A program made the position numbers and the translations under genes. From an uncultured archaeon (lineage in GTDB: Archaea > Asgardarchaeota > Lokiarchaeia > Sigyniarchaeales > SOKP01), in the NCBI GenBank assembly GCA_964486045.1, contig CAZALK010000004.1, forward strand, positions 1 to 64,000: a stretch of 64,000 bases of DNA, read 5' to 3'. Positions 36,310 through 63,778 of the stretch are shown in pieces (the first letter of the stretch is position 1; each line of letters starts with the position of its first letter). The notes below the pieces were generated by a model. That model had not been told where the DNA came from and did no database searches. It saw only the letters and a list, made by a program, of their open reading frames with translations.

Positions 36310-36322
36310 TAACCGTTTCACG
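36310..36322 (+). repeat. Half site TAACCG-TTTCACG (family-alpha element 36274-36322)
   Basis: Exact; extra arm GTTTCACG at 36274-36281. Confidence 0.95.
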
Positions 36323-36437
36323 AACTTTTTCAAGATATTAATTCTAGATAGTCTTCTTATTTTTAAGACATTAAGAGTTTAACTTACAAAATAGTTAAGA
36401 TTTATAACCTTTGAATAATAATCTGAATTAAAAATTC

Positions 36438-38702
36438 TTGAGGTTTATGCTTATGAGGATAAAATTGAGTGAATTTAGAATTCGTAATTTTAGATGTATC
36501 GATGATAGCGATTGGATAAAAGTTGAAGATATAACCTCCCTAGTAGGAGTTAATGAATCTGGAAAAACAGCTTTATTACAAGCATTATTGACTTTAAACC
36601 CCGGAAGTGGAGAAATAGACATAGATTACATTAGAGATTTCCCTAGAGCGAGATTGACTGAAGAGTATACTGAAGACTCTACCCTTGCTGAAGGTCGTTA
36701 TGTAATTCCTAAAGATTACCTAAATAAGAAATTAGGATTAAATAAATTAAATATAAATCCTAATAAAGAAATAATTTTAACCTTAAAAAGAAAATATGAT
36801 AAAAAATTATATTATAATTTTAATATTGAACTTGGAAAAAAATTTATCCCACAATTAAAAAAAGTATTACAAGAAGCTAGGAAAAATCTTTCCCGTAAAA
36901 ATGTTGATCAAATTCCTCAAATTCCTGAAACTCCCAAAAAAGAGGAAGAACAGGATACTCAGACTGAAGATATAAAAGATGATCAAATCAAAAGATTCAC
37001 AGAAAAAATTAAAAATAATCTTGTCGAACTTATCAATCTATACCTAAAGGAAATTGAGATCTCTTTTAAAGAAAAAAAGATCTTCAATACCCCAGAAAAA
37101 AGAGAAGAGATCAAACAAAAAATAAATATGTATAACCAAGCTTTGGGAGAATATTTTCAAACAGCAGAAAATGAGTTAAGAGATTTGCTTGATTATTTTG
37201 AAGAATTGTTAAACAATTTAGAAGGAAAAAGTCTTAGCGAGAAATTATATGACCTAGTTAAACAAGATCTTCCTGTATACATCTACTTCGAAGACTATAA
37301 TATCTTGGATGGGAGCATAATAATATCTAATTTAGTAAAAGCCATTCAAGGAGATATAAAATTTAAGGGATTTAAAATACAGGAAACTTTATTCAAACAT
37401 GTAAATTTGGATCCAATAGAAATTTATGAACTCGGGTCAACGAAACTTACAGATACACAAAAAATTGAACTTAATTCTAGAATACAGCAGAAAAATATAA
37501 ATGCGGACCAAGTTACGAATGATTTTTATGAAAAAGTGTCTAAAGAAAAGCAACAAAAATTAAAAAAAAGAAAGATCTTATTAGATTCTGCTTCTCAATT
37601 AATGACAAAGACATTGAATAAATATTTTCAAGAAAGAAACTATAAAGTTGAGTATGATACCGATGGTCAATTCTTACAAATTCTTATTTGGGATGATGTA
37701 AGACCGTCCAAAATAAATTTAGAGGAAAGAAGTAAAGGATTTAGATGGTACTTTTCATTTTTTCTTGTGTTTTTAGTAGAATCTGAGGGAATGCATAAGA
37801 ATGCAATTCTATTATTAGATGAACCAGGGATTCATTTACATTTACAAGCTCAATTTAATCTTATCAATTTTTTTCAAAAATTAGAAGAATCTAATCAAAT
37901 CATTTATTCTACCCATTCTCCATTCTTGATAGATGAATATCATTTAGAACAAGTAAGATCTGTTTATGAGGATGAAAAAGGTATAACCCATGTTACTGAT
38001 AATAACCTAATTCCAGATAAGAAATCTATATTCCCACTACAAGCGGCGTTAAGTTATAAAACTAGTCAGGTAATCTATCAAGGTTTAAAACAGCTTCTTG
38101 TAGAGGGTGATAGTGATTTTAACTATATAAAATCAATAAATTATATTTTAGAGAAAAGTGGGAAAAAATCACTTGATAAAGATATTGTTATAATACCGTG
38201 TAAAAGTGCTTCAAAAATTGATATGTATGCAAGACTATTTATTGATTTAGAGAACGTTCCTGTAGTTCTACTTGATTCAGATGCTGAGGGGAAAAGGGTT
38301 TTTGATGCTCTTACTGAAAAACTTTTTTCAAAAAATAAAAAAAATGTGTTAATGATAGGAGATTTTCTTAAGGATAGTTACGATACTGAAATTGAGGACC
38401 TTATAGGAAGAGAGCTCTTAGTGGATTGTATTAACAAAAATAATATTACTCAATTGCCTGTTTCATTAGATGAGATAGAAGATGGTACATTTGTTGATAA
38501 ACTAGTTGATTACTGTAACAAAAATAAAATCCCATTTAATGATAAATTAAATTGGAAATATGAAATATCATTAAAGTTTAAAAATAGTATATTAAGTGAA
38601 GATATTCATAAAATTATAGGTAAAATAACCCCTGAAAAACTTGGAGATTTTGAAAATCTAATTGGAAAAATAAATCGGAATGCTAAAAAGAAAGTCGATT
38701 AA
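36438..38702 (+). CDS. OLD-family-like ABC ATPase with TOPRIM domain
   Basis: IRNFRCI, GVNESGKT, RSKGF, LLLDEPGIHLH, YSTHSPF, LLVEGDSD, LLDSDAEG. Confidence 0.88.
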   Translation: MRFMLMRIKLSEFRIRNFRCIDDSDWIKVEDITSLVGVNESGKTALLQALLTLNPGSGEIDIDYIRDFPRARLTEEYTEDSTLAEGRYVIPKDYLNKKLGLNKLNINPNKEIILTLKRKYDKKLYYNFNIELGKKFIPQLKKVLQEARKNLSRKNVDQIPQIPETPKKEEEQDTQTEDIKDDQIKRFTEKIKNNLVELINLYLKEIEISFKEKKIFNTPEKREEIKQKINMYNQALGEYFQTAENELRDLLDYFEELLNNLEGKSLSEKLYDLVKQDLPVYIYFEDYNILDGSIIISNLVKAIQGDIKFKGFKIQETLFKHVNLDPIEIYELGSTKLTDTQKIELNSRIQQKNINADQVTNDFYEKVSKEKQQKLKKRKILLDSASQLMTKTLNKYFQERNYKVEYDTDGQFLQILIWDDVRPSKINLEERSKGFRWYFSFFLVFLVESEGMHKNAILLLDEPGIHLHLQAQFNLINFFQKLEESNQIIYSTHSPFLIDEYHLEQVRSVYEDEKGITHVTDNNLIPDKKSIFPLQAALSYKTSQVIYQGLKQLLVEGDSDFNYIKSINYILEKSGKKSLDKDIVIIPCKSASKIDMYARLFIDLENVPVVLLDSDAEGKRVFDALTEKLFSKNKKNVLMIGDFLKDSYDTEIEDLIGRELLVDCINKNNITQLPVSLDEIEDGTFVDKLVDYCNKNKIPFNDKLNWKYEISLKFKNSILSEDIHKIIGKITPEKLGDFENLIGKINRNAKKKVD

Positions 38703-38769
38703 TTTCTTTTAGAATGAATAATAAGAAGAAGCTATTTTGCGAAAAAAAGAATAAAAAATTAGATATCAT

Positions 38770-38782
38770 CGGTTATTTCACG
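38770..38782 (-). repeat. Half site CGGTTA-TTTCACG
   Basis: Exact; between convergent genes. Confidence 0.95.
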
Positions 38783-61574: not shown

Positions 61575-62204
61575 ATGAAATTGAAAATAAAGGGTGAAAT
61601 TATCAAAAAATTAATTAATTATTCAGAAAAATCGTTTCCAAAGTATTCTTCTCAAATATTAAATTTGGCCAATAAAAATTCTCAAGCTACAAGACCTAAA
61701 AATGTTGGCCAAATGTCTGAACTAATAAAACAATTTAGAAATTCAAATCCTCATGGCTCATTATCTGATTGGGAATCTTGGTATAAATCGAGAAACTTAG
61801 GAAAAATAAAAATAGCGACTAATAAAATTTCTAAGATGGTAAAAAATTTAAAAAATTCCATTGAAAACATTACAGATGAATTAATCGAAGTATGGGTTGA
61901 AGATTTAATTATAGATAAAACTTACTAAGGTTTAAATTTCCAAGATTCTATACTGGAGTTTCTCTCACAAACATTCAATATCGTATATAAACAATCAGAC
62001 CCTACAGAAGAATCTCAAGGGATTGATGGATATTTAAATGAATATCCAATTTCTATTAAACCAATTACTTATAAACAAAAAATTGTATCAAAGCAAGAAA
62101 AAATCGATGTGGAAATCATTTACTATATAAAGAAGGAAAGGAGTAAGGATATAGAAATTGAAGTAAGTGAAAATTTTATAAACAGAATTAGGAATCAGCA
62201 TTAA
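61575..62204 (+). pseudogene. MjaI-family restriction endonuclease interrupted by in-frame TAA at 61926-61928
   Basis: FPKYSSQILNLAN..QATRPKNVGQMSELI; the frame continues after the stop with EESQGIDGYL..PISIKPITY to a TAA at 62202-62204. Confidence 0.8.
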
Positions 62205-63510
62205 GATAAGATAGAATATCTTTACTTTTTCTTATAGAGTCCCCATATCTGATTGTTTTAGCATTTTTAAAAAAATTTGAAATCTGAAATTCCTTAAAAA
62301 TTATTTGGTCATACGATATAATTTGAAGTGCTTTTGATGATCCCATATATTCAAGAAAATTCTTTATTAAATCCCTAAATTCATTTTTATTTGAAAAATT
62401 TGAATTTATTATAATTATATAGTTTATGTAGTGATTCCACTTATCTTTTTCAACTAAATAATTTTGCGTAGGATTTTCTTTAATTTTGGATTTTAGTTCT
62501 TTTATTATCTTTTCCTCATTAAATTCTTTGATTTCGATTAATAAATAATCTAATATTATTTGATAATTTTTCTCATTTTCTAATATTATGATTCCTTTCT
62601 GTTTTTGATTTTCAAATTTAATTTTTAATCCTTCTTTTTTAGATTTTTGAAAAATTACATATAACATTAACTGGTAATCTCTAAAGTAGCCTATTCTACC
62701 TTGTTTTATTTTATCCTCGATAATTTTTTCAAAATCTTTATTGATTTCATAACCAACCCCATTTCGACAGAGAGATTTTGCTACTTTCAGCGTTGTTCCT
62801 GATCCTAAGAAGGGATCTAGTATTTTATCGCCAATAAAAGAAAACATCCTTATTAACCTATAAGGTAATTCTTCAGGAAACATAGCAATATGCTCTTTTT
62901 GGATTATTCCTGGAAATCTCCAATGACCCACAAACCACTTTTTCCATTCGGTTAATGATATTTTTGATAATTCTTTTATTTGACGTTCAACTTTCCTCGC
63001 TTTACCATTATGTTTTTTAAAGATCAATATATGTTCATAATCAAAAGTCAATAGCCCATTCCTTGGATAATAAATAGAGCCCATCAAAGAACAACCACCT
63101 GTAGTGTTAGTAGTACTTACTTTTTGCCAAATTATATCTCCTAAAAAGTCAAATCCTAATTCCAAACAATCATTTATGATTTGGCTTGCTATAGATAATA
63201 TTCTATACCGTCTATATTCTTTAGTCCGAAGATATTGATCCCCAATATTTATTATTATTCTACACTGTGGTTCAAGAACTCGATAACATTCAGTCCAGAC
63301 TTGCTTTAATCTCTCAAAATATTTTTTAAAAGAATCTGAGAACCCTATTTGTTCTTGTGAACCATAATCCTTTATTCTTCCGTATGGAGGTGAAGTTATT
63401 ACCAATTGAACTGTCGCATCATCAATTTCTTCCATATTTTCAGAAGATTTGAAATAAATTCTTGGTTCTTCTACATTTAACAATTCTTTTTCCTCATAAG
63501 AATAGTACAT
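62188..63510 (-). CDS. DNA amino-methyltransferase (beta-class N4-C/N6-A) with C-terminal extension
   Basis: VITSPPY precedes HIAMFPEELP..ILDPFLGSGTT..GYEIN. Confidence 0.92.
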   Translation of the reverse strand: MYYSYEEKELLNVEEPRIYFKSSENMEEIDDATVQLVITSPPYGRIKDYGSQEQIGFSDSFKKYFERLKQVWTECYRVLEPQCRIIINIGDQYLRTKEYRRYRILSIASQIINDCLELGFDFLGDIIWQKVSTTNTTGGCSLMGSIYYPRNGLLTFDYEHILIFKKHNGKARKVERQIKELSKISLTEWKKWFVGHWRFPGIIQKEHIAMFPEELPYRLIRMFSFIGDKILDPFLGSGTTLKVAKSLCRNGVGYEINKDFEKIIEDKIKQGRIGYFRDYQLMLYVIFQKSKKEGLKIKFENQKQKGIIILENEKNYQIILDYLLIEIKEFNEEKIIKELKSKIKENPTQNYLVEKDKWNHYINYIIIINSNFSNKNEFRDLIKNFLEYMGSSKALQIISYDQIIFKEFQISNFFKNAKTIRYGDSIRKSKDILSYLNADS

Positions 63511-63765
63511 TGAATAAATTTACATATTATTATTATTATTTATAATTATTAAAAGAAAAATAACAAAGGATTTTTTAATTCCTATTATTTTGTCATTTTC
63601 TGTTAACTTTAAATAGAATTATTACATATTAAAAAAAAAACTGGGCACATATTTATCAATTTAATGATATAGGTTGCCCCTTTAAAATCCGGATCTTCTA
63701 CAAAATGTAAGCTTTTCTTTAAAATCTTTCTTAACCAAGTCAATTATTTGTTTGAGCTCATACTC

Positions 63766-63778
63766 CGGTTATTTCACA
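63766..63778 (-). repeat. Half site CGGTTA-TTTCACa (12/13) with family-beta flank
   Basis: One mismatch; the following ~65 bp align with 49912-49978. Confidence 0.88.

Follow-up and report, generated by a model that had tools for sequence, protein, structure and literature searches.

The stretch of DNA analysed here, called the window in what follows, comprises the first 64,000 nucleotides (64 kb) of a 300-kb contig (C4) from an uncultured archaeon of the Lokiarchaeia, and it carries an array of gene modules bordered by short sites built on the hexamer TAACCG, an array that extends 3.5 kb beyond the end of the window. The model we propose, with moderate confidence, is that this array is a platform for site-specific recombination, composed of two complementary classes of modules and dependent on a XerA-type tyrosine recombinase acting in trans. 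The cores of the sites alternate in orientation, and this alternation is real but local, being found mainly beside the single complete site of the array and across short gene-less intervals.

The hexamer TAACCG occurs 28 times in the window against a chance expectation of about 10, and the specific signal is a 13-mer in which the hexamer is joined to a 7-nt arm, either on its left (type A, CGTGAAA-TAACCG) or on its right (type B, TAACCG-TTTCACG). The exact copies of these 13-mers in the whole genome (G000, 5.18 Mb, 31% G+C) all lie within C4:20874-67261, which gives an array of about 47 kb. A single complete site, in which the TAACCG spacer stands between both arms, is present: CGTGAAA-TAACCG-TTTCACG at 32642-32661, with two inverted, perfect 7-nt arms (9 of 11 positions if they are extended) around an asymmetric 6-bp spacer. 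This centre is the point at which the polarity of the arms flips. To its left all borders have the arm on the left (A+ or B-), to its right all have it on the right (B+ or A-), and each border retains solely the arm distal to the complete site, its opposite side being unconserved. The rule was not violated once among 163 sites in 88 one-centre arrays. Because of the palindromic arms and the retention of the distal arm alone at each border, core orientation is equivalent to border type, A or B, and the two border types give four module classes. On a relative's contig outside the fetched set (G011:C15), an A- site at 568 and a B- site at 13520 have their arms facing each other, and this pair may represent either two arrays or an exception to the arm rule. 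As to the spacer itself, TAACCG differs from its reverse complement CGGTTA by a transition at all positions, the YRRYYR pattern being self-complementary; a heteroduplex of the two orientations would hold G-T and A-C mismatches only. With odds of 1 in 8, this may be coincidental.

About one third of 135 genomes of the same family contain the 13-mers, and the larger sample consists of 28 contigs (C4 and 27 others from 19 relatives) together with 80 metagenome loci (L053-L132), returned from the 93 stretches detected when metagenome contigs were scanned for the 20-mer of the complete site. Sites with at most one mismatch gave 174 real matches against 2 in the reversed-pattern control and 0 in the metagenome control; sites with two mismatches are as frequent as in the reversed-pattern control. 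Redundancy is low, any two arrays having at most one module in common. Pooled over 78 related arrays, 173 of 247 neighbouring pairs alternate where 133.9 are expected (permutation p<5e-5). In the pooled arrays, the orientation of the cores is not the random one by which the sequence-only reading of this DNA would have been refuted. At rank 1 from the complete site, the cores are inverted in 62 of 71 arrays (87%, binomial p 7e-11), which bears out the earlier view that inversion is favoured over deletion between neighbours; rank 2 is direct in 30 of 39, rank 3 inverted in 12 of 19, and the phase is gone from rank 4. Restricted to gene-size modules, the inverted:direct ratio is 54:9 for those touching the complete site and, by rising rank, 16:12, 14:4, 3:5 and 9:8 for those farther out; it is 31:35 in contigs without a centre, and 127 inverted stand against 73 direct when all gene-size intervals are counted. 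In the genome set, the border type at one end of a gene module is independent of that at the other, with counts of 38 for B>A, 14 for A>B, 34 for A>A and 15 for B>B.

In the window, the sites and the features attached to them are the following, with the strand given as + or - where the feature has one.

20874-20886 (+), exact A border (CGTGAAA+TAACCG), left arm
23591-23603 (-), exact B border (minus-strand TAACCG+TTTCACG), left arm
25349-25361 (+), A border, the TGA within its arm being the stop codon of gene 23824-25353
26472-26484 (+), A border in the same core orientation as 25349, the two enclosing a singly flanked A>A module
28839-28851 (-), B border, left arm
30698-30754, B border 30698-30710 (-) and, 31 nt on, decayed A site 30742-30754 (two mismatches), an inverted-core mini-interval
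32642-32661 (+), complete site, flip point of arm polarity, the 45 nt on its left side resembling the main linker family
32866-34934 (+), ParA-type ATPase and two unknown genes
36274-36322 (+), B border 36310-36322 with a second TTTCACGAA 36 nt ahead, a short linker that recurs at 46544-46592 and 28839-28886
38770-38782 (-), A border where gene 36438-38702 (OLD-family nuclease) converges with gene 38792-39559
39922-39934 (+), B border with one mismatch, between divergent gene starts
42048-42092 (-), exact A border 42080-42092, its TGA being the stop of 42088-43566, and an A-like copy 42048-42060 with two mismatches
43650-43662 (+), B border between divergent starts
46367-46592, A border 46367-46379 (-), a gene-less interval of 207 nt, B border 46580-46592 (+)
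49899-50050, A border, main-family linker of 126 nt, B border; 139 bp core to core
54314-54333, second perfect dyad with the same arms and spacer AACTAC, outside the TAACCG series
54380-54392 (+), decayed B border (TAACCGTTTCAGA, two mismatches)
56202-56214 (+), B border, direct with 50038 and 54380, making a non-alternating stretch
60504-60654, A border, linker and decayed B border (TAACCATTTCCCG at 60642, two mismatches, backed by its distance of 138 bp from 60504)
63766-63778 (-), A border with one mismatch, its flank 78% identical to the 49899 linker, no recognisable B site
65141, 65971 and 67249, further A borders outside the window

The sites listed in the sequence-only reading all exist in the orientations it assigned to them, its right-arm positions being hexamer starts and its left-arm positions 13-mer starts, with the hexamers 7 nt on. 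Armless TAACCG hexamers are also present in the range of the right arm, at 41953, 44346, 59081 and 62949, and at 35299 just before it. The alternating array which that reading described is supported by the right arm, where 11 of 13 neighbouring pairs alternate against 6.9 expected (exact p 0.016), and by the pooled sample; the left arm, with 3 of 5 against 3.0 expected (exact p 0.7), and the whole array with its centre, out to 67386, with 16 of 24 against 12.5 expected (exact p 0.11), are at the level of chance. Taken from this window alone, the alternation is suggestive, not compelling. The same reading had placed A sites at the 3' ends of genes and B sites between divergent starts, a tendency that holds in the window between 20 and 46 kb and fails both beyond 46.5 kb and in the larger sample, where crude open reading frame calls give 113:139 for A and 77:77 for B (Fisher p 0.36). 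A general association of the two site types with gene ends was rejected on this ground.

The alternation has two sources, the short gene-less intervals and the modules touching the complete site. Short gene-less intervals, most of them copies of the conserved 131-nt linker and others mini-intervals of 12-36 nt, are inverted rather than direct by 46:1. Among the A-to-B intervals, 24 of 40 measure 128-134 nt, equivalent to 137-139 bp core to core, and these linkers form a few conserved families, the main one being found in seven genomes. A B site stands at +125 to +150 after 27 of 100 A sites; the idea that decayed linkers are concealed behind the A sites in general was abandoned, about 27% having such a B site and the remainder being equivalent to the null. 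We also considered the linker as a folded attC-like or RNA element, and this was ruled out: RNAalifold found 0 consensus pairs in 12 linkers, their CGGTTA and TAACCG ends alone being complementary, and an Rfam search of the window gave no match. The best-conserved block of the main family, TTTTC-AATAAATAGAC (49990-50037 in the window), lies about 35 nt ahead of the B core and resembles an archaeal TATA element directed into the next module, so that the main-family linker might supply a promoter. Mini-intervals between inverted cores are found in the window at 30698-30754, 36274-36322 and 46544-46592 and elsewhere at L086:3562-3616, L108:512-567 and G131:C24:7789-7833, some of them adjoining the complete site itself. 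Such intervals may represent remnants or unoccupied slots.

That exchange takes place at the cores is indicated by the modules shared between arrays (80-98% identity). In the 13 pairs examined, the homology starts at the arm and ends at the distal hexamer, and the neighbouring DNA is unrelated. Furthermore, a segment that adjoins the complete site in one contig can be found attached to an A border elsewhere, as in L120 and L089 (98% identity) and in L057 and L079 (99%). The latter pair was tried as a clean single-cassette insertion polymorphism and did not qualify, the shared segment being 99% identical but the other flank of the centre different. One module, found as G123:C79:243-1520 (L034), G112:C114:1681-2919 (L050) and L124:396-1633 with 94-96% identity, terminates at a B border in one of the three cases and at an A border in the remaining two, and its homology ends 25-65 nt short of the core; the tails next to the borders thus seem to be linked to the border type, not to the gene. 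Whole metagenome contigs ending at most 135 nt from the complete site are in excess, 20 of 66 against 6.1 expected. In L077, L104, L127 and L061 the end lies exactly 110 nt before the complete site, and such stubs would fit an assembly branch point after arm and core if k = 124 (110+13 = 123). A search for linker repeats in the stubs at the centre gave no match.

With respect to the enzyme, the genome G000 encodes a XerA equivalog on contig C18 (247 bits against a cut-off of 220), which would be the source of the activity that our model places in trans. A second Xer-like tyrosine recombinase of 310 aa (G000:C29:17161-18090, L147) reaches 124 bits against the XerA cut-off of 220 and is a candidate for a dedicated array enzyme. 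A tblastn search with the five tyrosine recombinases of G000 found no match in 1.1 Mb of arrays, other recombinase families being possible.

In the model we propose, the usual incoming unit would combine a gene module with a complementary module, often the conserved 131-nt gene-less linker. The unit would enter the complete site via one border and bring with it an internal inverted border; the flip of the centre-proximal module would then leave the complete site with an inverted neighbour on either side, and successive units would alternate between the arms. A module with inverted cores (B>A or A>B) would be barred from single excision, and would either flip, shifting the complete site to its opposite end, or move with a complementary neighbour. 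By analogy with the sfx sites of shufflons, the one-armed borders would only invert, and the symmetric site would also excise and integrate. Alternation would arise from the structure of the units and from the loss of singly excisable modules beside the centre, and inversion would merely preserve it; farther out, single-border cassettes, site decay and other rearrangements would blur the phase. Ten arrays have the layout centre, gene module, A-linker-B, in which the module and its linker are flanked in direct repeat by the centre and the B border, and the isomer that inversion is predicted to yield, in which the linker adjoins the centre, is found in five arrays different from those ten. L117 has the exact layout expected after two rounds of unit insertion and a flip, and L130 is the single-round isomer.

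The sequence-only reading had proposed that stepwise inversion by the full site would produce the alternation, and this part of it must be abandoned. Inversion between opposite cores conserves the number of alternating pairs, as established by algebra and by 20000 random trials with 0 violations: the two cores at the ends of the inverted DNA are unaltered, those inside are reversed in order and flipped, and each former neighbour pair corresponds to a new one of identical status, alternating or not. A nearest-neighbour hop leaves the sequence of orientations unchanged, only the position of the complete site being shifted. Since inversion conserves the count, which insertions and deletions alone can alter, alternation is a precondition for a walk of the complete site and not its product. 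Could the complete site be a travelling head, walking through the alternating part by successive inversions? In that case the defence island would be a large shufflon-like switch that reorders and reorients defence systems within the population, the complete site would be the sole door for the gain and loss of modules, and alternation would be kept as the only arrangement that allows movement without deletion of cargo. We regard this extension of the model as rather doubtful.

Several observations weigh against the platform model as a whole. A module was co-inherited with its adjoining linker in 0 of the 13 shared pairs, so that the pair is not a stable evolutionary unit, and one module body can carry A or B borders with differing tails of 25-65 nt, which means that exchange at the core alone is insufficient and that other processes reshuffle the ends. 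Units of module and linker adjacent to the centre are common though direct-flanked and hence expected to be excisable, so that the loss of excisable DNA is not the whole story. At least six contigs have A sites only, in one orientation, and away from the centre the flanking cores are direct or inverted about 50:50, so that alternation is not obligatory. In addition, 10-11 dyads in the genome have the same arms with other spacers, and a protein that binds the arms need not be a recombinase.

Two other histories of the array were considered. In a nested capture of the Russian-doll type, the incoming circle would carry its own complete site and an inverted bare TAACCG core; the bare core would split the resident complete site into a left and a right one-armed border, the incomer's site would become the new centre, and no inversion would be needed. 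The outward arms without violation (0 of 163), the inverted rank 1 on both sides, the direct rank 2 and the layouts of L117 and L130 are all predicted by it; the flank of the complete site resembles linkers now located at A borders, as if these had been former centres, and the centre-proximal DNA in G000 bears a plasmid-type parA operon. It requires, however, an efficient reaction between a complete site and an armless 6-bp core, when two complete sites would be far better partners, and it predicts perfect parity at every rank, which the 16:12 of gene-size modules at rank 2 does not provide. Nested capture is formally the same in outcome as the insertion of a unit followed by one inversion, the layouts are identical and the present data cannot separate them; we hold it to be quite unlikely as the route taken. 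In pure survivorship, modules would enter in either orientation, the complete site would quickly excise those that are direct-flanked and leave the invertible ones, and its hops would spread the cleaning a few ranks out. The scarcity of direct-flanked gene modules beside the centre only (9 of 63, about half elsewhere), the fading of parity with rank and the shufflon precedent, in which symmetric sites excise and asymmetric ones do not, all agree with it. Rank 2, however, is mostly direct (30 of 39), ten arrays keep excisable units of module plus linker, all of which efficient excision ought to have cleared too, and the 46:1 inversion of short intervals would be left unexplained, so that survivorship on its own appears unlikely.

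A different kind of explanation is that the 13-mers are protein-binding or transcription signals at gene ends (a ParB-like centromere, an operator or half of a terminator hairpin) and that alternation mirrors the direction of the genes. Between 20 and 46 kb of the window the sites have this appearance, type A lying where genes converge by their 3' ends and type B where gene starts diverge, 10-11 same-arm dyads lie just 3' of genes genome-wide, and parA stands beside the complete site. Against this, site type and gene end are not linked in general, no more than 3-5 of about 108 arrays contain the ParA operon, the homology of shared modules stops at the hexamer, the linkers have no consensus fold and the window no Rfam match, and a flip of polarity at one complete site per array is predicted by no regulatory model. 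The signal explanation is largely refuted and we judge it very improbable. Chance or ascertainment was also considered, about 14 sites of two kinds being able to give 11 alternations and missed, decayed sites distorting the series, and it is in keeping with the 16 of 24 (p 0.11) of the whole array, the flat left arm and the two-mismatch sites at control frequency. Yet the pooled permutation p<5e-5 was obtained from 78 arrays that share at most one module pairwise, the rank-1 p is 7e-11, and missed sites would reduce alternation, not increase it. Chance is refuted for the array family and retains next to no credibility as an explanation; for the window alone it is bounded only at p 0.016.

The comparison with pdif modules made in the sequence-only reading is apt. 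The C and D dif modules of Acinetobacter plasmids are obliged to alternate; their gain and loss is pairwise, and inversion involves an odd number of them (PMC13141974). Like these modules on Rep_3 plasmids, which depend on XerC/XerD, the array contains gene or empty modules between short sites with a 6-bp spacer, neighbouring sites are inverse and two complementary classes exist, with paired excision and integration and odd-numbered inversion on the dif side. Single dif modules are exchanged between replicons with the recombinase in trans (PMC13141974), and in both systems modules are found in varied contexts with breakpoints at the sites, as our 13 shared pairs show; the predicted Xer gene likewise lies elsewhere in the genome, on C18. 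In contrast, the Acinetobacter borders are complete sites, composed of a XerC arm, a 6-bp spacer and a distinct XerD arm, whereas here each border has one 7-nt arm, the complete site consists of a single arm sequence in two inverted copies, and one XerA-like type of recombinase would be involved. The flip of polarity at one complete site, the non-obligatory alternation, the Asgard host and the mostly defensive cargo are further differences.

In R64-type shufflons, the one-armed sfx sites recognized by Rci only invert, and symmetric sfx sites also excise (PMC11852207). The sites of both systems have a conserved core and one conserved arm with the other arm variable, and the restriction of asymmetric sfx sites to inversion matches what we expect here, namely inert direct one-armed borders and a reactive symmetric centre. 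The array differs in having no rci-like gene beside it, in using both handednesses of the one-armed site (arm 5' or 3' of the core), in modules that are whole genes or operons exchanged between genomes and not alternative 3' ends of one gene, and in the presence of just one symmetric site in each array. Mobile elements that integrate by means of Xer (IMEX), such as the CTX, TLC and VGJ phages and the gonococcal genetic island, are integrated by the host Xer recombinases at a complete dif-type site, leaving a degenerate hybrid beside a functional site, and successive integrations build arrays. The complete site of our array resembles such a target in its two inverted arms and 6-bp spacer; unlike IMEX arrays, it is surrounded by two-sided growth with both core orientations and by dozens of small cassettes, not phages. 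In IMEX systems the target is the unique dimer-resolution site at the replication terminus; in this genome that role may belong to the complete site or to one of the 10-11 dyads with its arms, and three such dyads, with other spacers, recur throughout the genus. Archaeal integrons are enriched in Asgard archaea, and integrons with folded attC sites are present in Asgard metagenome-assembled genomes (PMC9668308). Promoter-poor cassettes captured at one platform recall them, and the pure A arrays, in which all cores are direct, are integron-like; no intI gene and no folded attC are found, however, and the platform site has an arm on either side, with cassettes of both orientations. In its working the array comes closest to a cross between dif modules and shufflon fed by a Xer-type site, and is a member of none of these families.

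If this grammar holds, Lokiarchaeia-type Asgard archaea possess a platform for the capture and shuffling of genes. It would join the traits of dif modules (two classes, pairwise gain and loss), of shufflons (one-armed sites that only invert) and of Xer-exploiting elements (a recombinase of the host, a single complete site that is regenerated). The rule of orientation near the centre provides a testable handle on the movement of modules flanked by inverted sites, an open question in the case of pdif modules; it also predicts that the modules in direct repeat with the centre are currently mobile and tells them apart from the locked ones. What is added here is the phase relation of alternation to the centre, its split between linkers and centre-neighbours, the invariance argument and the failure of the gene-end rule.

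The array region is a low-G+C island (26-28% against 32-35%), and its cargo consists mostly of defence genes. These include, besides the OLD-family nuclease, an HNH nuclease paired with an AAA_15/21 ATPase, a phosphoesterase paired with an SMC-like ATPase, restriction enzymes of the MvaI/BcnI and MjaI types and their methylases, DUF4268 proteins and a wHTH protein resembling CARF proteins. A megablast search of a plasmid database with 16 kb of the array gave no match, and the GC skew along the 300-kb contig has no replication-terminus signal. Exact copies of the complete site are present in marine-sediment metagenome records, the LAZR01 series (probably the Loki's Castle assembly) included. 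The genome encodes several true actins (up to 441 bits) and ribosomal protein S8e, which among the controls was detected in archaea alone and marks the genome as archaeal.

A role of the centre in a ParB/parS system was rejected, the parA operon being a cassette of few arrays, 3-5 of about 108 only, and not a feature of the centre. Where it adjoins the complete site, in G000 (32662-36309) and in L102:8702-10958, the three-gene operon points away from it, and the two ParA proteins are 90% identical. In G000 the module from the centre to B+36310 comprises the ParA trio and the gene 35073-35705; its cores are direct, one of only two such B cases, an arrangement that would permit its excision in the form of a 3.7-kb circle (approximate size). 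The flanking cores of the L102 module are inverted.

Ten further perfect CGTGAAA-N6-TTTCACG dyads with other spacers are listed in G000, against about 0.02 expected by chance (C1:397464, C2:296668, C4:54314, C5:254597, C7:89001, C9:189559, C10:38457, C13:58254, C20:71493 and C23:20516). Nine are intergenic, most of them immediately 3' of genes. The spacers GAACAG, GATGCG and TCATCG recur, usually once each, in many of 54 genomes of the genus, and the first two are found in G000. One of these dyads may be the true chromosomal dif, and the rest may be operators or the heads of empty arrays.

Finally, the genes 28954-30423 (+) and 42088-43566 (-) are full-length paralogues with 71-74% nucleotide identity, occupying mirror positions on the two arms and having the same direction when each is read arm-first.

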